A program made the translations under genes and the position numbers. Of a stretch of DNA of 64,000 bases, positions 505 to 19,848 are shown piece by piece (the first letter of the stretch is position 1; each line of letters starts with the position of its first letter). Source of the DNA: Myxococcales bacterium (GTDB taxonomy: Bacteria; Desulfobacterota; Binatia; HRBIN30); contig JBBILD010000013.1 of assembly GCA_037445065.1 (NCBI GenBank), positions 1-64,000 of the forward strand, read 5' to 3'. The notes under the pieces are model-generated. The model worked only from the letters and a program-made list of their open reading frames with translations. It did not search any database and was not told the DNA's origin.

Positions 505-2640
505 TCAGCCACCGGACCCGAGCAGAGCAGCAACGTTACGCACCACCTCCACGTCCGCCTGGCGCAACAGTTCCGCCCTCTCTTCAGCGCTCGTAAACGC
601 GTGTTCGAACGCCGCCCGGACCAGAGACAGTGTCTCCCACAAACTGAGGCCACCGGCCATCCGTGCCGCGCGGACGTATTCGCTCGCCAGGTCGGTGCGG
701 CTGATCCCGGGGTTATCCGTGCAGATCACGACATCGAGCTGGAGCGAGCGAAAGTAACTGCGCAGCGGGTATTCCGGGTAACCCTCCGTGTGCGGCTCCT
801 CTGGGTCGTAAAAGCCGACCACCTCGACGTTGCTGGTTGGGCATAGCTCGATGGCAATGCCGCGGTCGCGGAGGCGCCGTGCCAAGTCCGGGCGCGCGTC
901 GAGCGTCAGGCCATGCCCCACGCGTTCCGCGTGCAGGCGATACACCGCCTGCCAAATGTTTTCTGGCGGTTCTCCCTCGCCAGCGTGAATGGTCACGGGT
1001 AAGCAAGCCGCAAATGCAGGTTCGAGCGCTCGGCAAAGCGCATCGAAGTTCGGAGCACTGGCCTCGTCGCCAGCAACATCGAACCCGACAGCAAAGCCTT
1101 TGAAATCCTGCGCTACTTCTGCCAACCGGCGAATGGTATCCGACGGCTCCGACGCCCCGTGGCCATGCCTGCGGTCGAGGACAAACAACAAGCGCAGGCG
1201 CGGTTGGTGCAAGAGGCCGCTCTCGGCCTTACGCACTGCCTCCGCAAAGAGGCGGACGAACCGCGAGCCTTCGCCCCGCAAGTATTTTTGCGGGCTAGCG
1301 CGCAACTCGCAGTACACCACGCCATCTCGTGCGAGGCGGCGCAGCGTCTGGCGGGCGTACTCCTCGATTGCCGCTTCGCGCTGCAACAACGCGGAGCCAG
1401 AGAGTTCGCCCGGTAACTCGTAAGCGCGGAAGCCACCGCGCTCGCTGGCGTTGCGGAGAGCCAAACGCGGCTCCGTGGGCACGAACAAGCGCGCTTCGAG
1501 TTCTTCCTCGCTCATATGGACCAGGATTGCTGCCGCAGCCTCAGAACGATTGGCGAGACGACGCAGGCGCTGCCACCAGTCCTCTGGCCACGGCAGCTCG
1601 TGCAGCCACGGCACGGCTTGCTTTGCCCGCTCTCGCTCTGCGCGGGTGAGGCTATCCCACAGGGCTCTGGCCACCTCACGCTGCGCTGGCAGGTCCAACA
1701 CGCCGCCCAAGTGGCAGTGGAGTTCCGCCTTGGGCAGCGCCCGCAACCAGTCGCGGTGTTGCGGTCCGAGCGGAGTTTTGCGCAGGGTCTCGATCTGCAG
1801 CAACGGCAAGCGGTACAAACCGTACCAATTCGGTCTGGCCTCCTCCGCGAGCAGACGCTGGATGTGCCCGGCGAACACCTCGGCCTTGCGCTGCTCACGC
1901 TCCAAGAGGCACTCGACCAGCGAGCTCTTGCCCGGCTCCCAGTCCACAACCTGCCAAGTTTTCCCCGACCGTTCGGCACGGCCATCCAGAGGGAAGTCCA
2001 CAGCCGAGATCCGCGGCCACGCTTGCGCACTGGCGTACAAGAGGTCCGAGGGGGCGAACGGGCCGAGGAAGACTGGGAAGAGATGCGCAGCCAGCTCAGC
2101 GGAGAGAGGCCCAGCAAAACGCTCTGGGGTGGGGTTGCGCAGTTCCTCGGGTAGCCGCCCGCCGGCGTCGAGGACATGCACGCAAGCGGCACAGCCGAAC
2201 CAGGTACCGGCCCACTGCATGTCGGCACTCATCGTTTTGCGCCCGCCAGCCAGGCTCAGCACTGTCCGCTCCGGCCCCACTTTCTCGGTCGCATGTGCCA
2301 CCAAGCGGAAGATCAGTTCGCGAATCGTGGCGCACTCCTCCGGCGTTGTCAGATCGCCCGCGGCTACTTTCCAAATGCGTAGGGGCGGGGGATCCGAAAG
2401 CAGAGCCCAGCACTCGGCTAACTTCGTTACCGAGTCCTCCGTGCCGCGGGTGGTGGCGATCCAGACTTCGTTCGGCCTTACCAGGCGGCGGCGCTCCACT
2501 TCAGCGCAAATCTCAGCGCGCTTAGGATGGTGGCCGTATAGGTCGAGAACATCCGGCGCCACCAATGCCAAAACCTCCGGCACCACCGCCCAGGTGGTAC
2601 CAAGCGTGCATACAAGGACACCACCGCTATTCGCTGGCAT
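505..2640 (-). CDS. cad1: CARF-adenosine deaminase fusion, type III CRISPR effector (Cad1/CAAD-like)
   Basis: N-terminal NE0113-like CARF domain (VCTLGTTWAVVPE...SLAGGRKTMS) and C-terminal adenosine-deaminase barrel (ELHCHLGG, YCELR, GFDVAGDE, TIHAGE, RVGHG, IELCPTSN, CTDNPG). Start set at ATG 2640 behind a GGGGAG SD. Last gene of the cmr operon. Confidence 0.88.
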   Translation of the reverse strand: MPANSGGVLVCTLGTTWAVVPEVLALVAPDVLDLYGHHPKRAEICAEVERRRLVRPNEVWIATTRGTEDSVTKLAECWALLSDPPPLRIWKVAAGDLTTPEECATIRELIFRLVAHATEKVGPERTVLSLAGGRKTMSADMQWAGTWFGCAACVHVLDAGGRLPEELRNPTPERFAGPLSAELAAHLFPVFLGPFAPSDLLYASAQAWPRISAVDFPLDGRAERSGKTWQVVDWEPGKSSLVECLLEREQRKAEVFAGHIQRLLAEEARPNWYGLYRLPLLQIETLRKTPLGPQHRDWLRALPKAELHCHLGGVLDLPAQREVARALWDSLTRAERERAKQAVPWLHELPWPEDWWQRLRRLANRSEAAAAILVHMSEEELEARLFVPTEPRLALRNASERGGFRAYELPGELSGSALLQREAAIEEYARQTLRRLARDGVVYCELRASPQKYLRGEGSRFVRLFAEAVRKAESGLLHQPRLRLLFVLDRRHGHGASEPSDTIRRLAEVAQDFKGFAVGFDVAGDEASAPNFDALCRALEPAFAACLPVTIHAGEGEPPENIWQAVYRLHAERVGHGLTLDARPDLARRLRDRGIAIELCPTSNVEVVGFYDPEEPHTEGYPEYPLRSYFRSLQLDVVICTDNPGISRTDLASEYVRAARMAGGLSLWETLSLVRAAFEHAFTSAEERAELLRQADVEVVRNVAALLGSGG

Positions 2641-2881
2641 GTTCTCCCCGATCTCGTGTGCCGTGTCTGCCGCGCGCCGGACGTGAACCCACCGCGCGAG
2701 CCTCCCCTTGCACCTTTCCACTCACTGCGCCCTGCACCTCGGTTATCGCGCTCATCCTTCGCCACGCTGAGCCGGTTCCGGCAGCGGCAAATGCCCCCTT
2801 GCCGTCGGCCCCCTCGCACGAGAAGGAAGAACCTCTCGCTTCGCTGTTCGTTTGCACGCTGGCTCGACCGCCCATTTTCCC

Positions 2882-3769
2882 TCACACGTTGGAAAGCTCG
2901 AATCGCCCAAAGCCAAACGTGGTCGCCTTGCCGATTTGCGCTTTGGCCCCAAAGACCAACCAGGGCCAAAGCTGAGGCAAACCGGCACCTTCGAGTTCCA
3001 CCGTACCCATCAGCCCTGGCCACTCCATCCTGCGCCGCTGAGTGGACGAGAAACGGCGCACCCGCACCATCCGCAAGTCAGCCCGCATCGAAAGCGAGGC
3101 GAGAAGCTCGATCGGAAGCGCGACGTCTCCATTCGGCAAGCCTTGCAAGCGAGCGAGCAAGGCTGCGCGTCGCTGGATGGCTTCGAAGAGCAGTTGCGGC
3201 GAGAGGGACGAGGCCACGCGACCTTCGTTTTTGATCCGGGTTGGGGTGACAAATTCGAGCCGCGCTCGTGTTGAGGGCTGCAATTCCTCGGGTTGCACGC
3301 ACTCCACAGCTTCGAGTTCGAAGGTCACGCGGTCGCGCCGCTTACCGAAGCCAATGCGGCCCGCGCGACGGAGCGCACGCTGCAACGCCGGCCAAACTTC
3401 GCGCACACGGGGCGTCGCCACCAGCCGCAAGCGGAGCGTGTCCCCTGGTTGAAACAAACACGGACTACCGTTCCGCGGCAGAAACGGAGGCTCAGGCGAG
3501 ATGGCAAACGGCCGCGGTGGCTCGGTGGTCACCCCCAACTCGCGCAGCGCAGGGTCGCCGCTGGCTGGCGGGTCGAAGAGCTGCGGATACGCACAGCTCT
3601 GCTCAACCGGACAGCTCCGGCAGGTCTCGCGGGCTTTGGCGACGCAAACGCCATGGTACAAGGCTTGGCCGAGACCACCGTGGATGGCGGTGGTGACCAG
3701 CGGCGGCAAGCGCCCGCTCGAGCGCGCGACGTACACGATCTGCCAGAGTTCCAAGCGTGGGAGTTGCAT
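2882..3769 (-). CDS. cas6: CRISPR pre-crRNA processing endoribonuclease Cas6
   Basis: C-terminal Gly-rich loop GKATTFGFG, FVTPTRIK, and an N-terminal Cys cluster (CVA..CRSCPVEQSCAY). The ATG at 3769 overlaps the cmr1 stop (TGATG). Confidence 0.88.
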   Translation of the reverse strand: MQLPRLELWQIVYVARSSGRLPPLVTTAIHGGLGQALYHGVCVAKARETCRSCPVEQSCAYPQLFDPPASGDPALRELGVTTEPPRPFAISPEPPFLPRNGSPCLFQPGDTLRLRLVATPRVREVWPALQRALRRAGRIGFGKRRDRVTFELEAVECVQPEELQPSTRARLEFVTPTRIKNEGRVASSLSPQLLFEAIQRRAALLARLQGLPNGDVALPIELLASLSMRADLRMVRVRRFSSTQRRRMEWPGLMGTVELEGAGLPQLWPWLVFGAKAQIGKATTFGFGRFELSNV

Positions 3770-4902
3770 CACCTCGCCTGTGCGAATCGTGACAAAAACT
3801 GCGCGAGGAGTCGCTCGCCACCTTGCGCCTCGTATCGCCGGTTTTCGCGCGGACCTCTCAGTTCGATCGCGGTAGTCGGAACAAACGGACCGTCCGCCCG
3901 CCACGCCAGCGCGTGCCACCTGCCTGCGATCTGCACAACGCGGAACTGCAAGCGAGAGGCAGACCGGTTCCAGCCCCTGAGGTTCCACAACCCGGCCCGC
4001 CGGAAACGAATCGGGAGGCCGAAAGCGGCAAGCAGCTCTGGCTTGTGAACACTCCCCTCGGCGCGGAAACTCTGAAACTGCCTACCTGCGAACTTTAGGC
4101 ATTCGAACCAACTGACTTGTCCATCCGCCCGCAGCACCGCGTGGGGCTGATCGTGCACTGGCTGCCCGGAGAGCTGGATCCGGAACGATCCCGGCAGGTG
4201 CTGGTGGTGTAGGCCCTCGGCATCCGCCGCAGGAAACCAGTTGCGGATTCTTTGAAAACCTTGCTCGAAGCGCGTCTTCCACTCCTGGGGCGAGGTGGCT
4301 CCGTGGGCGGGACGCAGCTCCTCGCACTCCGGCCAGCCTTCCCATTTGACCAGGGCGATGGTCCCGAAGCCGCGCCGCGAGCGGGTACCGAGGCCACCGA
4401 GGTGGCCGAACAGCCACAGCGAGGCAGCCCAGGCGCGGCGCGTCACCGTGGCCGGGTCGGTGCCCTGCGGGACCCAAGCGAACGGATCTTCCTGCCTGCA
4501 CCCCTCTTTCTTCGGCGTCCACTGCCAGCTCAGGGTCACCGTGAAGTCCTGACCTTCCGGAACAGCGCGGCGGTCGTTCTGGCCCAGGTAAAGCGTGTAA
4601 CCGAGGTACGCGGCACCGTTCTCTCGTGCCGCGGACGGCGCGAGTTGGTCCCTGTACGATTTTTCATCTCTGATCCAGTGACCTAAGCCGAGCCGGACGG
4701 GGGAAGACGCGCCGTTCCCCGTGGTCGCTCCGAACAAGTCTGCCTCGCGCTCCGCAAAAGACGGGTCCAACGCGCGGTACCACCAACGCAAGGCGCCGCG
4801 CAGACTGAACGGACGGATCTCTGCCGTTTTGGTATCGTTCGGCGCCGCGCCGCCGCAAAACACCGGGGTTACGATGTGCATGGTTGCCTGTAGCTTCTGC
4901 AT
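3769..4902 (-). CDS. cmr1: Type III-B RAMP protein Cmr1
   Basis: TPVFCGGA..EIRPFSLRGALRWWYRA, LFG, GGLGTRSRRGFG and FGLPI motifs. Confidence 0.92.
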   Translation of the reverse strand: MQKLQATMHIVTPVFCGGAAPNDTKTAEIRPFSLRGALRWWYRALDPSFAEREADLFGATTGNGASSPVRLGLGHWIRDEKSYRDQLAPSAARENGAAYLGYTLYLGQNDRRAVPEGQDFTVTLSWQWTPKKEGCRQEDPFAWVPQGTDPATVTRRAWAASLWLFGHLGGLGTRSRRGFGTIALVKWEGWPECEELRPAHGATSPQEWKTRFEQGFQRIRNWFPAADAEGLHHQHLPGSFRIQLSGQPVHDQPHAVLRADGQVSWFECLKFAGRQFQSFRAEGSVHKPELLAAFGLPIRFRRAGLWNLRGWNRSASRLQFRVVQIAGRWHALAWRADGPFVPTTAIELRGPRENRRYEAQGGERLLAQFLSRFAQAR

Positions 4903-4906
4903 GGAA

Positions 4907-6103
4907 TCATTCCTTCTTCTTGAGGAACGAGCCCAGCGAACCGTCTGGCCTCAACTCGACCTCGAATTTCTGCTTTGCATTGCGGAAGTTCGCTAGCTGA
5001 CCCTGGCTCAAGCCGGATCTTTGCAAAGCCTGTTTCAACGAGACCTTGATCGCCTGCCCCGCTCCTTCCTCCGACAGCTCCAACTCGTCCGTTTCCTGGT
5101 TCCAAGACCGAATCGTCGCAACGAACTTTTTAGCCTCGACTACCGGGGCTACCGAAGTTGGTTGCCCGGAGGCAGTTGTTGCCTGGGCTGCCTGCTGGCT
5201 CAAACTTTCCGCTCCGGGATTCGGGGCTGGCGAAGGCTTGCCAAACACCCCGTAACCGGAGGAGGTCTTGGCACGTGACGGTAGCTCTCGCACCCGGTGA
5301 CGTGGCTGTTTGCCAAACACCCCGTAACCGGAGGAGGTCTTGGCACCGAGTCCCCACTCCTGCAGGCCCTTCTCCAAATACTCGAGCGCGCGTTGCAAAT
5401 GTTCCCGCGGTGCGCGGCGGTCGCGCAAAACGAGTGCGATCTCGAACTGGCTACCCGGGGCGATGCGCAGGAACGGCAGCGGAACCGGGTCCTCGCAGTC
5501 ATGGGGGATCGGACTCTCCCCCTGGTAGTATTTTGGGTGGTGCGGGCTCATCACCTCCAGCTCGAGGCAGGCAGCTTTGAGGGGGATGCCATCGAGAAAG
5601 TCCACGGCACCCGCGTGGCCCTTGTCCCCACCCTCGCCGAACAGCTCCAGTACCTCAGGGGCAGGCTCCTCTACCGAGCAGCCCAGCTCCCGGCACATGG
5701 CATGGCGAGCAAGGCCCTTCAGGCCGGATCCCGGCAGGTACGGCAGGCCGTACGTGTGGTGCAAACAGAAGCCCAATTCCAGAGGCGTCGGTGCGGCAAG
5801 CCACAGCACGCAAGGCGTTTTCGCCTCTACGATGAGCGGGTGGGCCAGGTCGCCCAGGCATTTGAGGCCGTCCCTGCGCCGCTCGCTCCAGGCGCGGGCG
5901 AGATCTCGTAACTTCCCCAAGCTGCCTGCGACCCGCTTGTAATGTTCCTGCCGATGCGGAACCAACCGCTCTTGTCCGCCGCCATGCCTGACGTCCCAAA
6001 CGACGAATTTGCTCAGTTCGAGTCCGGGGTGGACGGCAAGTGTGGTCCTCGCTTGTTCCACAATTTGCGCAGTGCTCTGGGGGAGACACTCCAACGGCGG
6101 CAT
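4907..6103 (-). CDS. cmr6: Type III-B RAMP protein Cmr6 with duplicated G-loop and C-terminal extension
   Basis: LHHTYGLPYLPGSGLKGLAR, ELEVMSPHHPKYY, DPVPLPFL and GLGAKTSSGYG motifs; AGGAGG SD upstream. Confidence 0.92.
   Translation of the reverse strand: MPPLECLPQSTAQIVEQARTTLAVHPGLELSKFVVWDVRHGGGQERLVPHRQEHYKRVAGSLGKLRDLARAWSERRRDGLKCLGDLAHPLIVEAKTPCVLWLAAPTPLELGFCLHHTYGLPYLPGSGLKGLARHAMCRELGCSVEEPAPEVLELFGEGGDKGHAGAVDFLDGIPLKAACLELEVMSPHHPKYYQGESPIPHDCEDPVPLPFLRIAPGSQFEIALVLRDRRAPREHLQRALEYLEKGLQEWGLGAKTSSGYGVFGKQPRHRVRELPSRAKTSSGYGVFGKPSPAPNPGAESLSQQAAQATTASGQPTSVAPVVEAKKFVATIRSWNQETDELELSEEGAGQAIKVSLKQALQRSGLSQGQLANFRNAKQKFEVELRPDGSLGSFLKKKE
5238..5346. repeat. Perfect 37-bp direct repeat flanking a 35-bp unique insert inside cmr6
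   Basis: TTGCCAAACACCCCGTAACCGGAGGAGGTCTTGGCAC occurs at 5238-5274 and 5310-5346; the insert is 5275-5309. The net gain of 72 bp keeps the frame. Confidence 0.95.
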
Positions 6104-6291
6104 AGCGTCCTCCTATAGTCTAATCTGCAAAAGCTGGGGCAGTACTCCGAGAAAGGCCCTAGAAATCACACTGTTGGTTGCCAGCAGCAATACGACTCCC
6201 TCGGGTTCCGGCGCGGCCGTGTCCCACCGCTCCATCGCTGGGGAGATTGGCACATGCCCGTTTGACTCTCCTGCGGGGGCCTTGAGCCTAT

Positions 6292-6636
6292 TCAGCCCCC
6301 GGCCAGCTCCACTTCGGCCACGCGCTTGAGCCACTGCGCCACAGCCAAGGCGCGCCGGGTCTTCTCGCGGAAGCGGCTGGCGTCTCCGACTAGCCACTCC
6401 ACCCGCTCTGTAACGTTTTTTCCTCCCAGCACGTAAACTGCCAACTGCTTCGCCAGCTCTGGGCTTTTGTCGGCGTAAAACAGGAGCGTCTGCGCCAGAC
6501 CCGAAGTTTGGATGTGGCTCGGCAGCTTGCGGATGTGGCTCAGCAGCTCCTTTCGATTGTTCGTCGCCTGCTTCAGTGTGCGGATCGTTTGAACCGCCCA
6601 CTCGGCGTCGCGTCGTTCTTTGTGCACGACTGCCAT
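6292..6636 (-). CDS. cmr5: Type III-B small subunit Cmr5 (Cas11)
   Basis: 114-aa helical protein with LPSHIQTSGLAQTLLF and AQWLKR..E motifs, located between cmr4 and cmr6. Confidence 0.9.
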   Translation of the reverse strand: MAVVHKERRDAEWAVQTIRTLKQATNNRKELLSHIRKLPSHIQTSGLAQTLLFYADKSPELAKQLAVYVLGGKNVTERVEWLVGDASRFREKTRRALAVAQWLKRVAEVELAGG

Positions 6637-6655
6637 GGTGTGTTCCCTCCCTCGT

Positions 6656-7603
6656 TCACGATGGCCAAAGCTGCAGCCGGAAGAAGCCGCGGCCGATGGT
6701 CTCCTTGCCTCCGAACTGGGCGAGCGGGTTGTTCGCTATCAAGTCGCGAACCCACGCCCAGCCGCCACCGTTTGGCATCGCCGCTGGCTCGTTCTTGCCC
6801 TTCAAGGCCGCCGCCAAGCGCCGCGTTTCCAACCCCAGTACGCTGTAAAAGAGGGTATCAGCGGGCACGTACTCCTCGGTCCAAAGGGCACCTTCCTGAA
6901 CTGTTTTCTTGTCGGTCAGTCGCACGCGGGTGACGATTTCGGTGCAGTGCAGCGCGAGATCGGCAAAGAGCGCGTCCGGCAGGACGACGAGGTTTTTCGG
7001 TAGCAGTTCCCGCCAGTACTTGAGTGGATCTCCGGGCAAAAACTGCTCGCCCAGCACACGCGCCAAATCTTCCGCGGTACCCTTTTCGACCTCTACTTCG
7101 AGTTCCTCGATCAGCGCTTTCTCGAGCGGAAACTTCGCGCTCACGCGAGCCTTCTCGGCACCCATTCCCTCGACCGCCTTGCTTACCGCCGCAACCAGCC
7201 CCTTGGCTGCCTCCCCGCCCGTTTGCTGGAGGTCGCGTTTGAGCCGCTCGAGGAGGTACGGACAGGTGGTCCACGCAAACGGCGCTCCCACACTACGCAC
7301 GGGAAGGAGCAGAAGGCGGGCATCGCTCACCACCAGAGACCCGGCCTCGAGTGCCTCTCCGCCCGCACCTTGCGGCGGTTCGCTACCGAAGAGGAGCTTC
7401 GTGACACCCTGTTTACCATTGGTTTGCTCGCTCAAGTCGCGCAGCACACCCTTCACGCCCGAACCATGAATGGTTGGGTACCGCGTGTGGCGCTCGCGCT
7501 GCACGGGCAAATCCACTGCGCCCAGCTCAGCTCCGCTGCCCGCATGCACCGGCGTTTCTGCGAGCATGACGAGCAACTTCATCTCGAACACGTTTCCTGC
7601 CAT
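6656..7603 (-). CDS. cmr4: Type III-B backbone RNase Cmr4 (Cas7 group)
   Basis: TPVHAGSG..GAVDLPVQRERHT (catalytic Asp present), GSGVKG, DARLLLLPVRS, LWTEEYVP and QFGGKETIGRG; start ATG 7603 with AGGAGG SD. Confidence 0.95.
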   Translation of the reverse strand: MAGNVFEMKLLVMLAETPVHAGSGAELGAVDLPVQRERHTRYPTIHGSGVKGVLRDLSEQTNGKQGVTKLLFGSEPPQGAGGEALEAGSLVVSDARLLLLPVRSVGAPFAWTTCPYLLERLKRDLQQTGGEAAKGLVAAVSKAVEGMGAEKARVSAKFPLEKALIEELEVEVEKGTAEDLARVLGEQFLPGDPLKYWRELLPKNLVVLPDALFADLALHCTEIVTRVRLTDKKTVQEGALWTEEYVPADTLFYSVLGLETRRLAAALKGKNEPAAMPNGGGWAWVRDLIANNPLAQFGGKETIGRGFFRLQLWPS

Positions 7604-7614
7604 TGCCCTCCTCC

Positions 7615-8760
7615 TTACGAGTTTACGGCTCCTACCAGACACACACCGAACCCAGCCGCTTTTTCAGCTGAATCGGAAGCCACGCTCCGCATGTGAAACC
7701 GCTCCAAGTCGTTGCCACCCACATACGCCACGGTGCCGGCCGGGTAGTACGTGCGCAGCGGGCGAGGTCCCACCTGTTTCTGCCCATCGTGGGTGAGTTG
7801 CCAGCCACCGATGCGCACCGCACGCCCCGCAGCAACAGCGTGCACCTGCAAGCCTGCATTTGTTAGCGCCTCGATATCCTCCGGCCGCACCGGTGAAAGA
7901 AACAAGAGGCGAGCCTGCGAACCCAGGCTCTTCGGGGCGGCGGGGATTAAATCTTCTCGATCACAGGAGCGGATGCTCACCAAGTGCCCATCCGCCCCGA
8001 GGCGCATACAGTCGGCGTCGAGCTTCTCCCACGGCAAGCCGTTCGGCTCGATCACCGGAACGAGAATGGTTCGCCCCAGGCCGAGCGCCGTCATCTGGCG
8101 CACGTAAAACCGGCCTTCGCGGACGGTGTGCCGCTCCGGCTCCAACTGAATGCCGATACGCAACTCGAACCCGTAGTCGTTGCCAGCGGCACCGCTTTTC
8201 TCCTCGCGGACCTCGATTTCGTCTTTTCCCTCCAGCCATTCCTGTAAGAGTTTTCCGCTGAAGGAGCGCACACAAACGCTCTTCGTCGGATGCGCTTCCG
8301 TCAGCGGGGGGCAGAGAAGTGCTCGGCTCGCCACCAACGAGCACGCGCTGCCCTGCGGTAGCCGCTCACGGTCCAGCAAGCGCAAGCGGCGCAGGACGAG
8401 GCGCTTGCGTGTGCCGCCGCTCTCAGTTTCCTCGTAGCTCAGCACGTCGGCGGGCACCGGCCAGCGAAGTTCGCTGCCGCCGGCCCTCAAGAGCGCCGGC
8501 CCGATGGCAAATTTGGCGGGGCCGTCCGGCTCCCCCACGGCAGCGCGCACGGCACGCACTTGTGGATCGCCACATTGCTTCTGTGCGTAGTCCATCACCG
8601 CCACACCCTGGGCTTCCACCAAGGCGCCGCGCAGGGCGCCGAGCAACGTCCACGGCGGTGGAGGCCACACGCTCTGTGCATGCACCACGCCCGCAACATC
8701 GAACGGGCGTGCATCGCGCACGGTGAACACGTCCACAGGCGTCAGCTCCAAAAACTTCAT
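7615..8760 (-). CDS. cmr3: Type III-B Cmr3 (Cas5 group)
   Basis: PVDVFTVRDARPF..PPPPWTLLGALR, RIGI, LGADG, IGGW, PAGTV and GFG; ATG overlaps the cas10 stop (ATGA). Confidence 0.92.
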   Translation of the reverse strand: MKFLELTPVDVFTVRDARPFDVAGVVHAQSVWPPPPWTLLGALRGALVEAQGVAVMDYAQKQCGDPQVRAVRAAVGEPDGPAKFAIGPALLRAGGSELRWPVPADVLSYEETESGGTRKRLVLRRLRLLDRERLPQGSACSLVASRALLCPPLTEAHPTKSVCVRSFSGKLLQEWLEGKDEIEVREEKSGAAGNDYGFELRIGIQLEPERHTVREGRFYVRQMTALGLGRTILVPVIEPNGLPWEKLDADCMRLGADGHLVSIRSCDREDLIPAAPKSLGSQARLLFLSPVRPEDIEALTNAGLQVHAVAAGRAVRIGGWQLTHDGQKQVGPRPLRTYYPAGTVAYVGGNDLERFHMRSVASDSAEKAAGFGVCLVGAVNS

Positions 8761-11700
8761 TCTCCTCCCTCCCGAGCCAAAAAGGCAGCAGCCGTGACCA
8801 GTTCGCTCCACTGGAGGATGGCAGCCTCGACGCGCGCGAGCTGTTCACTTGGCGGAAGGTTTTCGAGATCCGGCTTGACCCCCTCGCCCAGTTCAACGAG
8901 CAGAGCAGAGGGGGAAGGACCGAATCCCTGCCGCGCCCCCTCTTCCTGCACTTCCCGCCTGTGCGCAACTCGCCGCGCCAGAGTACAAGCGACCTCCCAG
9001 AGCCTCGCCGGCTCCGCGGAGCCGCGCACCGATGGCTGGTGCCACGGATGTGGGCCGAGCAGCGGCGCGAGTTCGGCACGAAACAGGGAGGCCAGCCGCG
9101 TGGAGGCCTGCCCGTTTTGGAAGGCGTGGATCAGGTTCTGAAATGCATCCAGCGCTTTCGCACCCTTCTCAGTTGCCTGTGCCGACTCGCTCCTATCGGG
9201 TCGGCTTCCCGGAAAAGGCACGAAGCACTTGGTCCTCGAGCCAGAGCGGCGCTGAATGACGATTCCGAGCCGATTTCGACCGTGCTTCTTCGCCTCTTCG
9301 AGCGCCTCGCGTGCGGCACGCAGGGCGGAGCCCAATGGCCAGCGATAGTGGAACACGCACATACCTACCGAGGCGGTAGCGTTCCACCCGAAAGCGAGGC
9401 CCAGTCGGTCTACCTCGGACGGATCGTTCGCTGGCCACACCATACCCTGTTTTCCGAGAGAGGCCGCGACCCATGGCGCGTACGATGCACCTTCTTTCTC
9501 CGCAAACGAGCCCGGATGACCCGAGAAGCGCAAGCGCAAGCGGCGCGCAAGTTCGACCGCCTCCGGAATCGGGCAGAGAAAGAGTGCATCGTCACCCCCG
9601 GCGTATACCAGGTGACCAGGAATGTCCTCGGCCTCGATCGTCAGCGGCGCGGTAATGCGCGCGAAGGCGGCAGCGGTGGCACTGAGAGCGGCGTGATAGG
9701 CCGGGGTCACGGGCCGCGGAGTTTCGCTGATCTGCTTCAAATTGGGATAATTCTTCTCGAAGGCGGTCCATACTTGACTGTGCAAACTCGCCCCGAAGTG
9801 CGGAAAGCGCGGGTGAGTGCCGTTGAGCCACTTGCCCAACTCGTCACCGTCGAAGGACAGCACCGCCAAGTACGGCCGCGGGGGTGCGATCCCAGCTTCT
9901 TTCGCCGCGCGGCGCAACCGACCGGCCGCCGCTAAGAGCTCTTCCGGCACTTTCTCGGAAACTTCCTCGCGCGGGAACGGCAGCAGCCACTGGCCGTCAA
10001 TCTTAGCAAACTTCCTCAACCACTCCTCGCTCGAGCGGGTGGCAACATCAATCAAAGGAGCACAGTAAACGGACAAATCTCCTTTCTCGATCGCCTCTCT
10101 CTGCTGCGCCGTCTCCGCTGCTTGGACAAAGTCGCGGACCGCATCCCGCAGCTCCTTGAGCGCTTTCTCTCTGCCTGTTCCGCCTGCTGCAGCCAACCCG
10201 CGGCAGGCCTCGACCACCGCGAGTTTGAAGCCCGACGCGGCGATCTCCCCAGTCGAGGGCTGCCGGCCGAGCGCCGAGGCTTCGGTCTCTTCGAGTTCGA
10301 AGTGCCGCTTCGCAGTACACACGCCGCAAAGCTGTTCGCCTTCCTTGAGTACGTTCTGATCTTTGCGGCGGCTGTATCCCTCTGTACGCTGGATCCAGAA
10401 ATCCCCGGGGCCCAGCACTTCACGCTCACCGCACACCGCGCACTTGAGGCCACCTTCCAGCGGCAGCGTTCGGCCGGCGTAGCGTTCCTGTTTGGCGGCA
10501 AGGACGAGCATTTCCCCTTGCTCGAACACGTCGGCGTACAACACACCGGCATTCGGCTCGTAACCCAGCTCTGCCGCCCGAAATGCGTTGGCGATACGCA
10601 GACCGCGCCGCGCGTGCGCCTCGCTGCGGTGCCACACGGCCGGCGACTTCGACCACGCTTCCGGGTCAGCTTGCAAATCCCAAGGGGCAACACTCCAAAA
10701 CACTTCGAGCATCGCCTCCGCTTGGCGGCGTGCCCGCTCCTCGTACTCGCTGCCTGAGCCTGCGGCCGCACCCGCCTTGCCAGCCAAATCAACCCACCAG
10801 GTTCGCACGCTCTCCGCGCAGCGACGCGCGAGGTCCTCGGCTTGTTGCAGGGGCACGATCGCGGTGAACAAGTTTGGCAACGTCGGTACTAGCAGGGCGC
10901 GCGGCAAGTGGCGCAGCGCAGTCGCCAGTACCGCGCCGAGTGCGCTGTTGTTTGCCTCAGTAACGCCCAGTTCCTCGAGGGGCTTTGCCACCGCCGAATC
11001 GGCAGCGCTGGGGCTCGCAAAGGAACTCCCCGCCTTGGGAAGACCGAGTTGCTGCAAGAGCCAGCGGTCAAAGCGCGGCTCGAAGTACAACGATGGGTAA
11101 ATCACGTGCTCAGGTCCGAGTTCGTCGACCACCGGCAACATCGCTTGCCAGGTCAGTTCGGCGAGGAGGGAGGAAGAAGACCACAAGTCGCTCAGTTTTC
11201 GCGAGGCCGCGATGAAGTCCTGCACCGGACCGATGGCGACGCGCAGCAAGGCGGCCCCCTGCTCCCGCAACAGCAGACTTGCCAGAGCCGCTACCAGCGA
11301 AGTGTGCACCATCACCGGGTGATCGGGCATCCTCGAATCGGCAGGAAGAATTTCCCACAGCGTTCCCAGGCGGAAGCGGCGCGCCTCCTTCTCTTTCTGT
11401 TTCCGTTCGATTGCGCGAAGGAGGTCCGGCGTAAATCGCCACAGGACCAAAAACAGGAGGCGCGGGTCGCTGCTCAGCGGCGCCACGACGTCTCTCAGCT
11501 TCTCGAAAAGCGTATGCAGTTGTTGGACTTGTTCCTCCGTGACCGCCAGTTGGAAGGCCGTTCCGGTGACCGTACCCGGAACCAAGATGGATTCACCTGC
11601 GAGGGGGTGAACGATTTCCATCTCGCTTTCCGGGTTCACGGCAAACGCACGGAGCCAAGCGTGCCGGTCTGTACCGCTGGCAAGGCGGTCGGCCTTCTTC

Positions 11701-11852
11701 ACGCACTCCCACAGGCGATCCGCGACCGTCCCCACCAATTGCTCGACGAATTCTCTGCCGCGCTGCTCATGCCCCTCGAGGGTCCAGGGCTTGTGCGGTG
11801 GGTCATGAAACAACGCTGCGATCTTGGCCTTGAAGAGTTTCTCGTCACTCAT
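8757..11852 (-). CDS. cas10: Cas10/Cmr2 large subunit with HD domain and GGDD Palm cyclase
   Basis: N-terminal FHDPPHK / ADRLAS / PADSRMPDH (Cmr2 HD type), IGPVQDFIAASRKLSDLWSSS, zinc finger CAVCGER..LCGVC, FDGDELG and YAGGDD. Confidence 0.96.
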   Translation of the reverse strand: MSDEKLFKAKIAALFHDPPHKPWTLEGHEQRGREFVEQLVGTVADRLWECVKKADRLASGTDRHAWLRAFAVNPESEMEIVHPLAGESILVPGTVTGTAFQLAVTEEQVQQLHTLFEKLRDVVAPLSSDPRLLFLVLWRFTPDLLRAIERKQKEKEARRFRLGTLWEILPADSRMPDHPVMVHTSLVAALASLLLREQGAALLRVAIGPVQDFIAASRKLSDLWSSSSLLAELTWQAMLPVVDELGPEHVIYPSLYFEPRFDRWLLQQLGLPKAGSSFASPSAADSAVAKPLEELGVTEANNSALGAVLATALRHLPRALLVPTLPNLFTAIVPLQQAEDLARRCAESVRTWWVDLAGKAGAAAGSGSEYEERARRQAEAMLEVFWSVAPWDLQADPEAWSKSPAVWHRSEAHARRGLRIANAFRAAELGYEPNAGVLYADVFEQGEMLVLAAKQERYAGRTLPLEGGLKCAVCGEREVLGPGDFWIQRTEGYSRRKDQNVLKEGEQLCGVCTAKRHFELEETEASALGRQPSTGEIAASGFKLAVVEACRGLAAAGGTGREKALKELRDAVRDFVQAAETAQQREAIEKGDLSVYCAPLIDVATRSSEEWLRKFAKIDGQWLLPFPREEVSEKVPEELLAAAGRLRRAAKEAGIAPPRPYLAVLSFDGDELGKWLNGTHPRFPHFGASLHSQVWTAFEKNYPNLKQISETPRPVTPAYHAALSATAAAFARITAPLTIEAEDIPGHLVYAGGDDALFLCPIPEAVELARRLRLRFSGHPGSFAEKEGASYAPWVAASLGKQGMVWPANDPSEVDRLGLAFGWNATASVGMCVFHYRWPLGSALRAAREALEEAKKHGRNRLGIVIQRRSGSRTKCFVPFPGSRPDRSESAQATEKGAKALDAFQNLIHAFQNGQASTRLASLFRAELAPLLGPHPWHQPSVRGSAEPARLWEVACTLARRVAHRREVQEEGARQGFGPSPSALLVELGEGVKPDLENLPPSEQLARVEAAILQWSELVTAAAFLAREGGE

Positions 11853-12056
11853 TCGTTCAGCCCTCTCTCCGCCGTGCCGTGCGGAGGGAGAAGTGCGAGC
11901 CCGCCAGAGCGCCCCCTACTTTCTCCAACTGCTGCGCTCCTCCTCTCCTCCGAACGTGCACGGAGCGCCTCTCTAATGCCACCTTCCATCCTTGGCTATG
12001 CCCCCTGTCCACTTCCCAACATTGGCGCCAACGTTGGTCCCCTGACCTATGCTGCT

Positions 12057-13160
12057 CTACACGAAGCGAATCTTCGCGGGAGCGAGCTGGAGGCCATACA
12101 GCCGCCCGCCTTTGTCGCCGACCCGAACAATGGCGTACGGCTTGGCTGCTTCACCCAGTGCTTGTTGGAGGGCTGCGGCGATGTGGCTCACCTCCGGGCG
12201 AAAGTTGCGTTCGCCCCAGCGGCCGGCTCCCACCGCGAAGGACTGCCAGCTCTTCATGAGATCGCGCAGCCGGTCTGCAAACGAAGCGGCAATCTCCTTT
12301 GCAGGCAAAAAGCACTGCTCGCAGCCGGGGCACTCTTGCCTCGTTCCGTGCGCCAGGCGCCTCTCCGCGAGTAGCCAGTACATGCCCAGTTGCAGGGGGC
12401 TCAGCTTAATGGCCTGCCCGGCACAGGACAGGAGTCGCCTACCCTTGTTGATCTCCACATTCGGCTCGAGCAGAGCCGCAAGCCGAGTTTGCAAGCGTGC
12501 CACCAGCTCGCGAAACGGTGCGTTGCTCCATGAGCGATCGTTGCAGACCAGGCGCAGCCGCGGGAACGGAAGGTCGGCCAGATCCACGCGCACCTCGGTG
12601 CGCGGAACCGAACGCGTGCCAGCGGCAGTGCGTACCTTCACGACCTTGCCGCCCTTTGGCGGGAAGAAGAAGTCGGAGCTTTCGAGTTCGGCGGGCTGCA
12701 CCAACACGTGCGAAAGACGGTCGTTGGGCCGACCGCACAAGATCATGGCGGACGCAAGCAAGTAGCCCATGGTTTTGCGCCCGCCCGCAATCGAAGCGTG
12801 CAAGGGCGGTTCGAAATCCGCCGTGTACTTGCGCACCAGATCCAGGATGAACTCTGCCGCCTGCTCGCTGTCCGCAGTGGTACGCAGGTCATCCAAGGCT
12901 GCTCCGTTGGCCGCAGGGAGCAGTAACACGTTTTCCTTAGCGAGGCGGAACCGTTTTGCCTTCGGATACGCTTTTTGCAGTTGTGTCCACGCTGCCCCCT
13001 TCCCCAACAGGTCGCGCACGATCCTCTCTTTCCCAACGGTAGTGGTGATGATCACGACATCGGTCTCCGGTGGGCGCAGCTCGGACACGCACAGAGCGTA
13101 GACCGTTTCTGTAACGATTTGAGGTGTCGCTCCAGCAACAAAGAGCAGTCTCCTCTCCAC
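12057..13160 (-). CDS. NE0113-family CARF protein (putative cOA ring nuclease) with C-terminal wHTH-like domain
   Basis: VAGATPQIVTETVYAL, ITTTVG, LHASIAGGRKTMG, DRLSHVLV and LADLPFPRLR match the Cas_NE0113 pattern. The C-terminus resembles an OmpR-type wing (IKLSPLQL...RLYGL) and has a CPGCEQC insert. Start set at GTG 13160 behind GGGAGGAGG. Confidence 0.82.
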   Translation of the reverse strand: MERRLLFVAGATPQIVTETVYALCVSELRPPETDVVIITTTVGKERIVRDLLGKGAAWTQLQKAYPKAKRFRLAKENVLLLPAANGAALDDLRTTADSEQAAEFILDLVRKYTADFEPPLHASIAGGRKTMGYLLASAMILCGRPNDRLSHVLVQPAELESSDFFFPPKGGKVVKVRTAAGTRSVPRTEVRVDLADLPFPRLRLVCNDRSWSNAPFRELVARLQTRLAALLEPNVEINKGRRLLSCAGQAIKLSPLQLGMYWLLAERRLAHGTRQECPGCEQCFLPAKEIAASFADRLRDLMKSWQSFAVGAGRWGERNFRPEVSHIAAALQQALGEAAKPYAIVRVGDKGGRLYGLQLAPAKIRFV

Positions 13161-13951
13161 CGCTGCGCCTCCTCCCGGCGTGTGCGAGCGCTTTACGTTG
13201 GATCGGACCTGCGAGTCAACATGCGCTGCCAACTGCGCACGAATTTCCCGCCAACGAGCAGTGGCGAGGTACCGCTCCGGCACGGCCTCCACGGCCCAAC
13301 ACGCACCGGTTCCAGGTTCAACCGCTTTTCGATTTCTCCTGGCGTTGGCCGTGAAAATCCGGCCACCGGCGTTCTCCCACGCAGTTCGAAAACGTTTCTT
13401 GCGCGCTCTGTAGCGCCGGGTTATAGGTGGGAGCCCGATGTTCCTCGCTCGCTCAATCCGGTGCCGCGCTAGCCGTAGTGAAAAGTCGCTATGAATGTCC
13501 TGGGTAACACATGGCGCTGGCGTTTTGGTTGGCCGGCTTGGCGCTCCACCCAGCTCCGGGACTCAGGGAGCACTTTACCGTCAGTTTGCGGCCCTTCCAG
13601 AGTCCCTTCGGCCCACATTGAGGGGATTGCAGCCAAGGGCCCAACCGTTCCGCAGGTTGTAGCTGGCCACCTGATCAAGGCACCGGGCAGCGATTCGAGG
13701 AACGACCGGGTGCTACGTTTTTCTGCGCGGTACACCGATTGGGGGAAGCGTGGCGGCACAGAGGACATCGGAGCGGCGCGCTCCTACCCCACGCGGTGCG
13801 GTTTGATCGGCTGTAAGAATCCGATGGGCTCGGACGAAGACATTACGACTGCTGGGATACAGGATCGAGACAACTCGAAGAGCTCTCGAGCGAGGTCGGT
13901 TCTGCCGTCCGCCCTTCCCTCTCGGTAACAAAAAAAATGAAGGAGGAGGTA

Positions 13952-14578
13952 ATGACCAAGCCAGCGAACAAAGTCACTGGTGCGGAGTTCCTTGCCCACT
14001 GGAAGAAGATGGCTGACGAAGGGCGCTTGAACTTCAACACTGCCCTCGCCTTCCAAACTGCGATTCGTCACGTGCTCTCGTCACGCCCCGGCTGGGAGAA
14101 TCAGGATGTGAACGCGCTGACCGACGCCCAAATCGAAGACTTGCTGCGGCGTTTCGAGACGCGCGCGCGACAGGCAAACTTCCAGCAAAAGACGATTGGG
14201 GAGTACCAGCGACGGTTCCGCCAAGCAATCAACTGGCTCCGCCAGTACCTCAAAGACCCGCGGGGTTGGAAAGCGCAAACCTCGCGCCCGGTACCGCGGC
14301 CGCGTAAGCGGGCTGCTCTGCCGGGAGTGGGCAAACCGGCCGCGCTCCCAGCGCAAGTGGCGCGCGCGGTCGGCAAGCCAGCGGTGGCAAAATCGGAGGC
14401 GGCTATGGTGATGGAAGCAGCCATCAGTTCGGTGGACTACCCGTTTCCGATTCGGCCAGGGGTGGTTGCGCGGCTGAATCTGCCCACCGACCTTACGCGC
14501 TCCGAAGTGCGGCGGCTCGCGAGCTTTTTGCAAGCGCTCGCCGTAGACGCGGAACCGTCCCAGCAGCAGGGCAACTGA
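13952..14578 (+). CDS. Hypothetical protein; N-terminal helical domain resembling a tyrosine-recombinase core-binding (SAM-like) domain
   Basis: Strong SD AGGAGGAGGT before ATG 13952. Helical N-domain (NTA..FQTAIRHVL...KTIGEYQRRFRQAINW), Pro/Lys/Ala linker, and short C-domain (YPFPIRPGVVARLNLPTDLT.SEVRRLASFL). No catalytic recombinase domain. Confidence 0.7.
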   Translation: MTKPANKVTGAEFLAHWKKMADEGRLNFNTALAFQTAIRHVLSSRPGWENQDVNALTDAQIEDLLRRFETRARQANFQQKTIGEYQRRFRQAINWLRQYLKDPRGWKAQTSRPVPRPRKRAALPGVGKPAALPAQVARAVGKPAVAKSEAAMVMEAAISSVDYPFPIRPGVVARLNLPTDLTRSEVRRLASFLQALAVDAEPSQQQGN

Positions 14579-14586
14579 GTTTTCCA

Positions 14587-14852
14587 CGCGCTCGCTGGGG
14601 CGAGCCTCGGCTCTAGCTGCGCGGTTCGATTCCTCGAGCACGAGGCACCTCCCCGGAAAGTCCGGGAGAGCTAGTGCTGCGCAGCCAGCTTCTGTTGCGG
14701 GAGCCGAGATGTCCTGATCGTACGGAGGCCAAACGCGAACAGGATCGCAACCAGTGTGGGGTGGTTGCGTTCACCAAGGAGGCGCTTTCCGCGGGCTGCC
14801 ACTGAGCGGTAACCGGCGGCGTTTTTGGGCCCTCATTCGACCAGCGAGCGTG
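14587..14852 (+). ncRNA. Putative structured RNA (nested multi-stem fold)
   Basis: Closing stem 14587-14598/14841-14852. Internal stems 14606-14613/14701-14708, 14616-14625/14676-14685, 14632-14645, 14652-14666, 14711-14745 and 14746-14769. G-U pairs favour the + strand. Confidence 0.4.
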
Positions 14853-14940
14853 CTGGCCGCAGCGGTGAACGATGCGCTCGCCCCAGGCGAGCGGTGGCGG
14901 CTTGCGATCCACACCGATTGCCCCCGCAGCGCCCGGCAGA

Positions 14941-15048
14941 GCTCGATTCCTTTGTCGGGCTCCATGATACCGGGCGCAATTGATTCCCCCCGTAAGACCT
15001 ATCTCGTTAGGTGCTCGGTCCCTTTGTCGCGCTCCATGATTCTGGGCG
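14941..15048 (-). CRISPR. Degenerate two-repeat CRISPR-like mini-array (36-bp repeats, 36-bp spacer)
   Basis: Repeats 14941-14976 and 15013-15048 are 31/36 identical with 72-bp period. The minus-strand consensus ends ...GAGCCCGACAAAGGGAYCGAGC. The spacer is 17/36 GC, lower than its surroundings. Confidence 0.5.
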
Positions 15049-15075
15049 GCCTCGTTCCCTGGCAGCGGGGATAAG

Positions 15076-15108
15076 CCGCCGCTGGGCCGCTTCCGCGCCC
15101 AGCGGCGG
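15076..15108 (-). terminator. 12-bp GC hairpin downstream of the minus-strand lipoprotein gene
   Basis: CCGCCGCTGGGC / GCCCAGCGGCGG perfect stem with a 9-nt loop; the U-tract is weak. Confidence 0.4.
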
Positions 15109-15150
15109 GCACCGGCCACGATCGGCACGCCGGGAAGCGGCGACTCGCAG

Positions 15151-16989: not shown

Positions 16990-17171
16990 CGGTTCGAGTT
17001 CCCTCCCCGCACACTTCTCCGTGTCGCTTTTCTCCAGTCGATGCAACAGCCCACCTTACCGGGGCACAATGGCTACCATCCTGTGCGATTCTCCGTCAAA
17101 TGACAATCGAAAATTCCTTCTCCGGGACGATTGTTGACAGCCCGGGGTGGGCACCTTACCGTGGGGCACAT

Positions 17172-18347
17172 ATGATCCAGGCGGTCCTCCGGCAAGCAGA
17201 ACGACTGGCGCGCATCGATGCGAACCGTGCCTTATTGCGCTTCGTGAACGGCATCGAGTGGCTCTTACGCGATCCAGCCGCAGTGGTGGGCCGCACTCCG
17301 TACGAGGTGGTGCACAAGCACGACAAGCTCGAAGTGCGGCGCTACCAGCTCGGCCGGGTGCGAGCCAGCCACCAGCTACCGATCTTGCTCGTCCCTCCCC
17401 TCATGGTGAAGCCCTTCATTTATGACCTGCTTCCCGAGCGGTCGCTCGTGGCCTTTCTCCTGCAGCGCGGCTTTCGCGTCTATGTCGTGGACTTCGGGGA
17501 ACCCGACCAAGCCGACCAACTCGTGCGGCTGGACCATTACATACTCGATTGGATGCCGCAGGCATGTGAAGCGGTCCGCCGGGATAGCGGGATCCGGCCG
17601 CTGTCGCTGTTCGGGTACTGTATGGGCGGTATCTTCTGTCTCACCCATACCGCCGCCAACGAAGACCGGGATGTGCGCAACATCGTATGCCTCGCGGTAC
17701 CCCTCGACATGAGCAAGATGGGCCTACTCGCGTGGGTCGCAAAGCTGGCAGGCAGTCAGGTGGATAGCATTGCTCGCCGCTTGGGAAACGTGCCGGGAGG
17801 TCTATCGAGTACGGCTTTTAGGCTGCTGACTCCGGCGAAGAACTTTACGCGCTACGCCGATCTTTTCCTCAACCTGTGGAACGAAGAATTCGTCAATGGC
17901 TTCGATGCGATGAATCAGTGGGTGAGCCAGTTTATTGATTACCCGCGCGACGCCTTCATTCAGTTCAACCGCGAGTTTTTACAGCGCAACAAGCTCGCCC
18001 GCGGGCAACTCACCTTGCGCGGCAAGGTGGCAGATCTGCGCCGGATCGAAGCGAACCTGCTGGTGTTTGCTGGCAAGACCGATCAAATCGCCTCACCTGC
18101 GTCTGTTCGCCCTCTCCTCGATAAAGTGAGCAGCGCTGACAAGACCTTCCTGCTCGTCCCCGGGGGACATATGGGCGTGCTCGCCGGGGCGCAAGCACCG
18201 ACACAGGTGTGGGAGCCAATGGCCAAGTGGCTGGCCGCCCGCTCGCGGTACCAGGAACGAAAGCCGAGGCAAGCATCTTCCGGCCCCGCCCTTCGCGCGG
18301 CGCACTCGGGCGCCACCCGGGATCGGCGTGCGGCTGCCGCCGGCTGA
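17172..18347 (+). CDS. Class III PhaC-like polyhydroxyalkanoate synthase / alpha-beta hydrolase
   Basis: GRTPYEVV, PILLVPPL..KPFIYDL.PERSLV, VVDFG, lipase box GYCMGG, DQIA and GGHMG give a Cys-Asp-His triad. Confidence 0.75.
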   Translation: MIQAVLRQAERLARIDANRALLRFVNGIEWLLRDPAAVVGRTPYEVVHKHDKLEVRRYQLGRVRASHQLPILLVPPLMVKPFIYDLLPERSLVAFLLQRGFRVYVVDFGEPDQADQLVRLDHYILDWMPQACEAVRRDSGIRPLSLFGYCMGGIFCLTHTAANEDRDVRNIVCLAVPLDMSKMGLLAWVAKLAGSQVDSIARRLGNVPGGLSSTAFRLLTPAKNFTRYADLFLNLWNEEFVNGFDAMNQWVSQFIDYPRDAFIQFNREFLQRNKLARGQLTLRGKVADLRRIEANLLVFAGKTDQIASPASVRPLLDKVSSADKTFLLVPGGHMGVLAGAQAPTQVWEPMAKWLAARSRYQERKPRQASSGPALRAAHSGATRDRRAAAAG

Positions 18348-18365
18348 CCGATTGGGGAGGATGGG

Positions 18366-19846: not shown

Positions 19847-19848
19847 CC

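Follow-up and report, generated by a model that had tools for sequence, protein, structure and literature searches.

A type III-B CRISPR operon of a Binatia genome with a long-form Cad1/CAAD deaminase and a candidate CARF5 transcription regulator

Proteins of the Cad1/CAAD family join a CARF domain to an adenosine deaminase (ADA) barrel, and biochemistry and structures have been published for three of them (PMC11645235, PMC12669630, PMC12993439). Here we describe a nine-gene type III-B CRISPR operon whose last gene encodes a further member of this family and whose first gene, followed by a conserved palindromic DNA element, encodes a CARF-winged helix-turn-helix (wHTH) protein. The operon occupies positions 505-13160 of a window that consists of the first 64 kb of contig JBBILD010000013.1 (C13) of assembly GCA_037445065.1 (3.79 Mb, 46 contigs; the other C-numbers in this text denote contigs of the same genome). 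The window DNA has a G+C content of ~64%, and among named homologues, those closest to its proteins belong to Candidatus Binatia. The deaminase is ordinary, though of a long form; the part worth experiment is the CARF-wHTH protein at the operon head together with the conserved palindrome.

TaqCad1, or TaqCAAD, of Thermoanaerobaculum aquaticum (PDB 9ebt, 9ubl; PMC12669630, PMC12993439) is built from a CARF5 domain, a helical linker and an ADA barrel, as is the deaminase of the window, and its gene likewise stands at the end of a III-B cas10-cmr operon. Its CARF domain cleaves cyclic tetra-adenylate (cA4), K106 is required for cA4 binding, and residues H260, H262, G264, H461 and W472 are needed for ATP deamination or allosteric switching (PMC12669630). 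BbCad1, from a Bacteroidales bacterium (PDB 9c67), is the same kind of CARF-ADA fusion; it converts ATP to inosine triphosphate (ITP) upon binding of cA4 or cyclic hexa-adenylate (cA6), and it has been assayed for ring-nuclease activity (Baca et al. 2024, PMC11645235). LngCAAD of Limisphaera ngatamarikiensis (PDB 8z3k, 8z3p) has its III-B context, domain order and catalytic motifs in common with the window protein. It is accompanied by a Nudix hydrolase that turns ITP into inosine monophosphate (PMC12993439), whereas the window contig is without a Nudix gene.

A CARF domain followed by a winged helix, as in the CARF-wHTH protein, is found in Csa3 (PDB 6wxq; PMC8844856, PMC8699464), a cyclic oligoadenylate (cOA)-responsive regulator of cas genes that was, according to a 2022 review, the only characterized non-nuclease CARF effector (PMC9704534). 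Csa3 belongs mainly to archaeal type I-A systems, whereas the window protein heads a bacterial type III operon and, unlike Csa3, is of the CARF5 clade, carries an OmpR/PhoB-like DNA-binding domain and has no sequence-level match to any solved chain (a search of the solved structures returned nothing at E 0.1 or better). The CARF fold is also common to the ring nucleases Crn1/Sso2081 and Sis0811 (PDB 7ygh; PMC10018336, PMC8643638), which share with the window protein the conserved Ser/Thr of motif I and Lys of motif II. Their CARF domains are of another clade, however, and the conserved DNA element adjoining the gene in the window points to DNA binding. The NE0113 family, to which the CARF-wHTH protein belongs, was predicted in 2014 to act in transcription regulation (PMC4012209), and no experimental study was found in the literature under NE0113, TIGR02584 or CARF5.

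Pfam, NCBIfam and PADLOC agree on the nine genes, all of which lie on the minus strand (Table 1). The locus is a type III-B (Cmr) interference operon comprising Cas10/Cmr2, Cmr1, Cmr3, Cmr4, Cmr5, Cmr6 and Cas6. Cas10 carries the HD nuclease motif FHDPPHK (HD, residues 16-17) and YAGGDDALF, the GGDD motif of a cyclase-competent Cas10, and matches solved Cmr2 chains at E 1e-42 to 3e-45. Among the 49 open reading frames (ORFs) called in the window, none matched the HEPN, NucC, Can/Card1, SAVED or CorA families (Pfam, with PADLOC on the first 17). An earlier reading made from the DNA letters alone, called here the sequence-only reading, had described just such an operon, with intact GGDD and HD motifs in Cas10, a CARF-adenosine deaminase with its HxH, HAGE, H and D residues, a CARF-wHTH protein and no HEPN, NucC, Can/Card or CorA gene, and in all of this it was right. 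Taken as a whole, we consider it probable that the locus is a III-B operon with two CARF5-clade cOA receptors, one a Cad1/CAAD deaminase and the other a proposed Csa3-like regulator.

The AlphaFold2 model of the CARF-wHTH protein has a predicted local distance difference test score (pLDDT) of 93. Residues 1-233 form the CARF domain, for which the closest solved structures are LngCAAD (8z3k, Z 14.3, the best match), Cad1 (9c68, Z 13.1) and Crn1 (7ygh, Z 12.8). Residues 233-361 form a winged helix of the OmpR/PhoB type, which superimposes on VanR with a Z of 10.1 and a root-mean-square deviation of 2.0 over 90 residues, with GlnR, AdeR and PhoP also among the matches. The whole chain aligns with Csa3 (6wxq) at Z 10.6 over 198 residues. 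Across 58 sequences of the NE0113-type family, no variation is seen in CARF motif I (G-x-S/T-P-Q) or motif II (SxAGGRKTM). PADLOC assigns the CARF domains of this protein and of the deaminase to the same CARF5 clade, following its model names; both proteins would therefore read the same ligand. A loop of the winged-helix domain (residues 277-283) contains a C-x2-C-x2-C cluster, which 34 of the 58 aligned family members share and for which others show another cysteine pattern; it could form a small metal or redox site.

The DNA next to this gene is conserved in a way that is consistent with an operator. An alignment of the spacer between the NE0113-type gene and cas10 from six genomes, the one studied here and those of five relatives, has a single run of consecutive invariant columns, a palindromic element of ~24 nt, which in the window (12016-12037) reads on the minus strand as the tandem palindrome CCAACGTTGG-CG-CCAATGTTGG. 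The element starts 20 nt past the stop codon of the NE0113-type gene and ends 164 nt ahead of the cas10 ATG. Palindromes of the form CAANNTTG (core CAA-NN-TTG), often in tandem, follow the NE0113 stop codon in all eight relatives of the same family or order that were compared, within 40 nt of it in seven, and in five of these relatives cas10 starts ~170 nt after the gene, as it does in the window. More distant lineages have the palindrome [GA]CAAGCTTG[CT], located upstream of the NE0113-type gene: 17 of 19 such loci have CAAGCTTG within 300 nt upstream, and 7 of 10 class-level loci have it near position -100. Altogether, 6180 nt contained 21 CAANNTTG sites, against ~1.5 expected.

Within the 3.79-Mb genome there is a single occurrence of the tandem form (0.23 expected). 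The sequence CCAAYRTTGG occurs at 12 sites, 8 of them intergenic, and 5 of these 8 lie beside CRISPR-Cas modules: the two in the window, C20:4898, C45:4766 and C10:149532. The C20 site is 234 nt ahead of a second cas10 gene, and the C45 site is 57 nt ahead of an operon encoding a TPR protein, a primase-polymerase (PrimPol), Cas1 and Cas2. These data make 12016-12037 a candidate operator of the CARF-wHTH protein, with similar sites preceding two further cas operons.

For the CARF-wHTH protein, the role of a transcription factor that senses cOA, similar to Csa3, is more likely than that of a plain ring nuclease. The sequence-only reading had proposed a putative ring nuclease; fold and DNA element favor a transcription factor instead, possibly one that also cleaves its ligand. 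Several points weigh against regulation through the palindrome. NCBIfam names TIGR02584 "CRISPR-associated ring nuclease Csm6", and the usual targets of OmpR-type domains are direct repeats. No site lies upstream of the window's own NE0113-type gene, the regulon sites were picked post hoc, and genome-wide the single 10-mer palindrome is found exactly as often as expected (58 found, 58 expected). In the related loci, CAAGCTTG occurs at 91 sites in 824,533 nt (12.6 expected), many of them inside genes, and these sites are not enriched at short open frames (5/91 compared with 78/1180 random positions), although this measure is crude and poor in GC-rich DNA because open frames there run into spacers. 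Moreover, at least 14 loci have G[GA]CAAGCTTG[CT]C at one fixed place in the CAAD gene, ~1390 nt from its start, so that part of the CAAGCTTG excess does not represent operators. These intragenic copies may reflect coding constraint or internal sites. The same G[GA]CAAGCTTG[CT]C sequence was also seen at other repeated offsets in CAAD-related loci.

Because of these caveats on the DNA element, the transcription-factor model for the CARF-wHTH protein stands at about an even chance; it is compatible with ring-nuclease activity. We hold the broader form of the model tentatively, as slightly less probable than its contrary: NE0113/TIGR02584 proteins would be the bacterial type III counterpart of Csa3, gated by cOA and recognizing a deeply conserved palindrome (GCAAGCTTGC in proteobacterial lineages, CCAAYGTTGG/GCAAYGTTGC in this one), and here they would couple the alarm to both cmr operons, the deaminase and the Cas1-Cas2-PrimPol module.

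A different explanation would make the CARF-wHTH protein nothing but a stand-alone ring nuclease, one that degrades cOA and thereby switches the deaminase off. Its winged helix would then have no role on DNA, as in CARF-HTH ring nucleases such as Sis0811, and the palindrome would serve another purpose, perhaps as an RNA hairpin at the gene's end. The NCBIfam name, the match of the CARF domain to Crn1/Sso2081 and the invariance of motifs I and II would all fit such a protein, as would the cleavage of cA4 by the related CARF domain of TaqCad1 (PMC12669630); a CARF-HTH ring nuclease is also on record (PMC9638899). The element lies directly past the stop codon, where a hairpin is possible, but the single 12-nt palindromes of the relatives allow only a ~4-bp stem, the element has no T-run, and most lineages have the site upstream of the gene. 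What has been kept across lineages is the sequence CAA-NN-TTG itself, beyond mere pairing ability, and similar sites precede other cas operons in the genome. The two activities are mutually compatible, and we regard a protein that is a ring nuclease and nothing more as unlikely.

The deaminase clearly belongs, by its sequence, to the characterized Cad1/CAAD family. The comparison with Cad1/CAAD that the sequence-only reading had drawn was borne out by a full-length match to the PADLOC model CARF5--CARF_ADA (PDLC01908; 627 bits, E 9e-189, residues 8-703 on model positions 3-601 of 605) and by phmmer matches to the solved CAADs in the range of E 1e-42 to 1e-47 (9ebt/9ubl 9.7e-47, 8z3k/8z3p 4e-44, 9c67 3e-42). 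Pfam finds PF00962 at E 1.1e-41, and the CARF part matches PF09623 and the PADLOC CARF5 model. A profile of the long-form group, to which the window protein belongs, aligns its core with the solved CAADs end to end at E 2.6e-85 to 2.2e-78 (2.6e-84 for LngCAAD, 2.2e-78 for BbCad1). LngCAAD itself was reportedly described by Li et al. in Science in 2025.

In an alignment of 46 homologues (residue numbers are those of the 711-aa protein), the zinc-ligand and catalytic residues H308, H310, H552-A-G-E555, H576 and D642 are invariant or nearly so. The same holds for residues specific to the family, namely G312 of HxHLGG, D642-N643 of TDN and W563 after HAGE. Canonical ADA has Asp where Cad1/CAAD proteins have the Gly of HxHLGG and the Asn of TDN. 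Pairwise alignment places the corresponding residues of the window protein on H260/H262/G264, H461, W472 and the TDN motif of TaqCad1. CARF motif II, GGRKTM, is invariant in the deaminase homologues, and its Lys, the Lys of GGxKT in TaqCad1, aligns with K106. Motif I is CTLGTTWAVVPE in the window protein, close to CSVGTSWAVVPE in TaqCad1. By homology, the protein is predicted to be an ATP-to-ITP enzyme with cOA-dependent activity and a hexameric form.

The window protein differs from the solved CAADs in length. Of 8000 proteins scored in a homologue search with the deaminase, 533 reached E 1e-10 or better; those listed, 120 in number and from Methylococcales, Burkholderiales, Binatia and Planctomycetota, are 42-97% identical to it and nearly all 690-760 aa long. 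TaqCad1 has 625 aa and BbCad1 600 aa, as against 711 aa in the window, and LngCAAD likewise differs from the long form. Profile alignment attributes the extra length to two conserved insertions that are absent from all three solved proteins, one of ~25 aa after the first CARF strand-helix and one of ~50 aa between HxHLGG and the remaining barrel, the latter with invariant Trp and Arg residues. No characterized member of the ~700-aa subclade was found in literature searches. The sequence-only reading, which had supposed that the homologue may be uncharacterized, was right as to kind but overrated the novelty, the biochemistry of the family being already published. The deaminase is a further example, from a little-studied lineage, of an effector family whose mechanism has been solved, and most of its sequenced relatives, among the matches listed, are of the longer form with the two insertions that lie outside the published structures.

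The transfer of function from the solved CAADs is weakened by these unmatched insertions and by the level of identity, which is only ~35-40% in the deaminase domain (this is also the value for TaqCad1) and lower in the CARF domain, where the similarity to BbCad1 is weaker. Two absences also count against the reading. No CRISPR array was found in the 64-kb window or at the contig start, and the 6 genomic matches to the Nudix family PF00293 are all on contigs other than C13 and more than 4 kb from any contig end; as a check of the deaminase's neighbors this covers the contig only, which stops 504 nt past the gene. The sequence-only reading mentioned neither the missing array nor the end of the contig.

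The insertions might be taken to mean that the long form is functionally distinct, with another substrate (dATP, adenosine, AMP or an NAD-related compound), another activator or another oligomeric state. The invariant Trp and Arg residues within them, the near uniformity of length among the listed homologues and the failure of our literature searches to turn up a biochemical study of the long form would be in keeping with this. We nevertheless think it improbable: the residues for ATP recognition and allostery known from TaqCad1 (Gly after HxH, TDN and Trp after HAGE; PMC12669630) are kept, the core aligns end to end with the solved CAADs, and the published census counts long-form members, the Methylomicrobium album protein for one, among ordinary CAADs.

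The tools show directly which genes and motifs are present, to which families they belong, what fold the regulator has and that the DNA element is conserved; the following mechanism extends these results by homology. The Cmr complex would bind foreign RNA, upon which the palm domains of Cas10, with the GGDD motif, would make cOA from ATP, as in the family at large. By homology to TaqCad1, LngCAAD and BbCad1, cA4, cA6 or both would bind the CARF dimer of the 711-aa protein and activate a hexameric deaminase core, which would convert ATP, and probably dATP too, to ITP and so lead to growth arrest. The deaminase may limit its own signal by cleaving cA4, because its motif I CTLGTTWAVVPE is near that of the cA4-cleaving TaqCad1. 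The second receptor, with its CARF5 and OmpR-type winged-helix domains, would be a cOA-sensing transcription factor like Csa3, as its fold and the conserved DNA sites suggest. A dimer of it, or a pair of dimers, on the tandem palindrome would tune expression of the cmr-cas6-CAAD operon. It may also control the second cmr operon and the cas1-cas2-PrimPol module, because similar sites lie upstream of both.

The CARF-wHTH family is widespread and uncharacterized, and a candidate operator, a defined promoter region (the NE0113-cas10 spacer) and a candidate regulon are now in hand for it. If the regulator reading is true, it implies a feedback loop between interference and adaptation, and it raises the question of whether type III signaling feeds back on the expression of bacterial cas genes.

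The pairing of the deaminase with a CARF-wHTH protein is not unusual. A full-length NE0113-type gene on the same strand is present in 25 of 59 public loci with a long-form CAAD, and the count is 17 of 29 for loci whose upstream flank is 9.4 kb or longer; some loci have the gene heading the type III operon, others have it beside the deaminase gene. The operon partner of TaqCad1, in contrast, is Csx1. Table S1 of PMC12993439 lists 121 CAAD systems, most of them with a second CARF protein, which is labeled "Csm6" in 40 rows and is the sole partner in 14; it contains no Binatia entries. Some of these "Csm6" entries may belong to the NE0113 family under its NCBI name.

The CAAD gene is not always part of the operon in close relatives. 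It lies outside the cmr operon in all four genomes of the sister genus that were searched, hundreds of kb from the NE0113-cas10 operon, and three Binatia assemblies have it as a lone gene flanked by priA and def. In the genome studied here, priA and def are adjacent with no deaminase gene between them, and the CAAD gene ends the cmr operon. These differing sites indicate that the gene has moved relative to the operon within the family.

The rest of the genome holds further CRISPR and cOA-related genes. A second III-B locus (C20:5132 to ~12000) encodes a Cas10 of 975 aa with HD and GGDD, followed by Cmr3, Cmr4, Cmr5, Cmr6 and Cmr1. After it comes a Csx1-like gene of the CARF1-HEPN type, with the HEPN part divided between two frames (C20:14008-14467), either as a pseudogene or through an assembly error. 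C4:3164-4855 carries a TIGR02710/CARF1-6H-HEPN (Csm6/Csx1-like) gene with the R-x4-H motif RNRSILAH, which adjoins type I-G remnants (Cas3g and Csb2 fragments) and a gene for a Maf-like nucleotide pyrophosphatase. The CARF7-DUF2103 protein encoded at C16:75160-76224 (PADLOC 438 bits) is related to CARF-RelE effectors and is an orphan, its gene having no cas neighbors.

Adaptation genes are absent from the window. Two types of array were found at the ends of other contigs: the first, with a 37-nt repeat, is broken over contig ends next to the Cas2-Cas1-PrimPol-TPR module (C45:1-4709 and the end of C10), and the second goes with a type I-G system (C44, C27, C4). The second III-B locus and the CARF-HEPN, CARF7-DUF2103 and Csx1-like genes could answer the same cOA. 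Given the second III-B locus, the CARF-HEPN gene and the CARF-DUF2103 gene, the claim of the sequence-only reading that the signaling output is a deaminase rather than a nuclease is true of the operon but not of the cell. Its claim of a complete circuit likewise stands only inside the operon, with other cOA-related genes elsewhere in the genome and neither an array nor adaptation genes in the window.

Table 1. Coordinates of the operon genes and of the candidate operator in the window, with supporting matches
Feature	Position	Strand	Support
Cad1/CAAD-family CARF-adenosine deaminase, 711 aa, long-form subclade	505..2640	-	PADLOC CARF5--CARF_ADA, PF00962, solved CAADs
Cas6 endoribonuclease, 295 aa	2882..3769	-	PADLOC Cas6 PDLC01477 199 bits; PF10040
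Cmr1	3769..4902	-	TIGR01894 40.7 bits (cut-off 28.65); PADLOC Cmr1
Cmr6, in-frame 72-nt duplication, C-terminal extension	4907..6103	-	TIGR01898 113 bits
Cmr5, 114 aa	6292..6636	-	PF09701 55 bits, E 1.1e-14
Cmr4	6656..7642	-	TIGR02580 222.5 bits (cut-off 87)
Cmr3	7615..8811	-	PF09700 138 bits; TIGR01888; PADLOC Cmr3
Cas10/Cmr2, 1031 aa, HD and GGDD	8757..11852	-	TIGR02577 192 bits (cut-off 79.4)
Tandem palindromic element, candidate operator	12016..12037	.	Conserved block in NE0113-cas10 spacer of six genomes
CARF5-wHTH protein (NE0113/TIGR02584 family), 367 aa	12057..13160	-	TIGR02584 177 bits (cut-off 80.65); PADLOC CARF5--CARF 273 bits, full length

The starts of the deaminase and of the CARF-wHTH protein are supported by proteins of exactly 711 and 367 aa in the collection searched; the longest deaminase ORF extends to 2721. 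A 241-nt spacer sets the deaminase gene off from cas6. The PADLOC match to Cas6 begins at residue 83 of a long ORF, and the ATG of cas6, as read from the sequence, overlaps the cmr1 stop codon as TGATG. The real start of Cmr3 probably lies ~20 codons inside its ORF. An ORF at 6113-6601 (162 aa) was considered as Cmr5 and rejected: it matches neither any family nor the Cmr5 of the second locus, and Cmr5 is encoded by the overlapping ORF in Table 1, with 25% identity to that second Cmr5.

Upstream of the regulator gene is a 776-nt spacer (13161-13936). Beyond it, seven ORFs in 13937-20286 (96-631 aa, including 13937-14578, 15151-17046 and 17422-20286) have no Pfam or PADLOC match, and the two nearest the regulator gene (213 and 631 aa) have none in NCBIfam either. 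Rfam and tRNA scans of the window found nothing, a promoter scan gave no sigma-70-like sites, and a terminator scan gave 15 terminator-like sites where 14.8 are expected by chance. At the other end, contigs from sequencing runs did not reveal sequence beyond the contig start, which lies 504 nt past the deaminase stop codon. Just inside it, a 27-nt stretch (36-62) recurs, 96% identical, at C16:71077-71103, ~4 kb from the orphan CARF gene; it was considered as a CRISPR repeat and rejected, since there is no repeat array at the C16 site.

That the operon is idle or decaying in this strain, with immunity left to the other systems of the genome, is very improbable: the lack of an array in the window, the recent duplication in cmr6 seen in this strain only and the frameshifted Csx1-like gene of the second locus, as a sign of decay elsewhere in the genome, would fit it, but each of the nine genes is an open frame with its motifs intact, the duplication keeps the reading frame, the array with the Cas1-Cas2-PrimPol module at contig ends (C10, C45) could serve the operon, and the absence of an array is weakened as an argument by the end of the contig 504 nt past the deaminase gene, assemblies often breaking at arrays.

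Cmr6 extends ~110 aa past the family model at its C-terminus. Its gene contains a perfect 37-nt direct repeat at a spacing of 72 nt (5238-5346), by which the motif AKTSSGYGVFGK is duplicated in the protein. The duplication is absent, its 72 nt being skipped, in contigs from a related strain and from two hot-spring runs. Read depth over the middle piece of the duplication is about half that of the flanks in the likely source run, suggesting that the duplication may be polymorphic.

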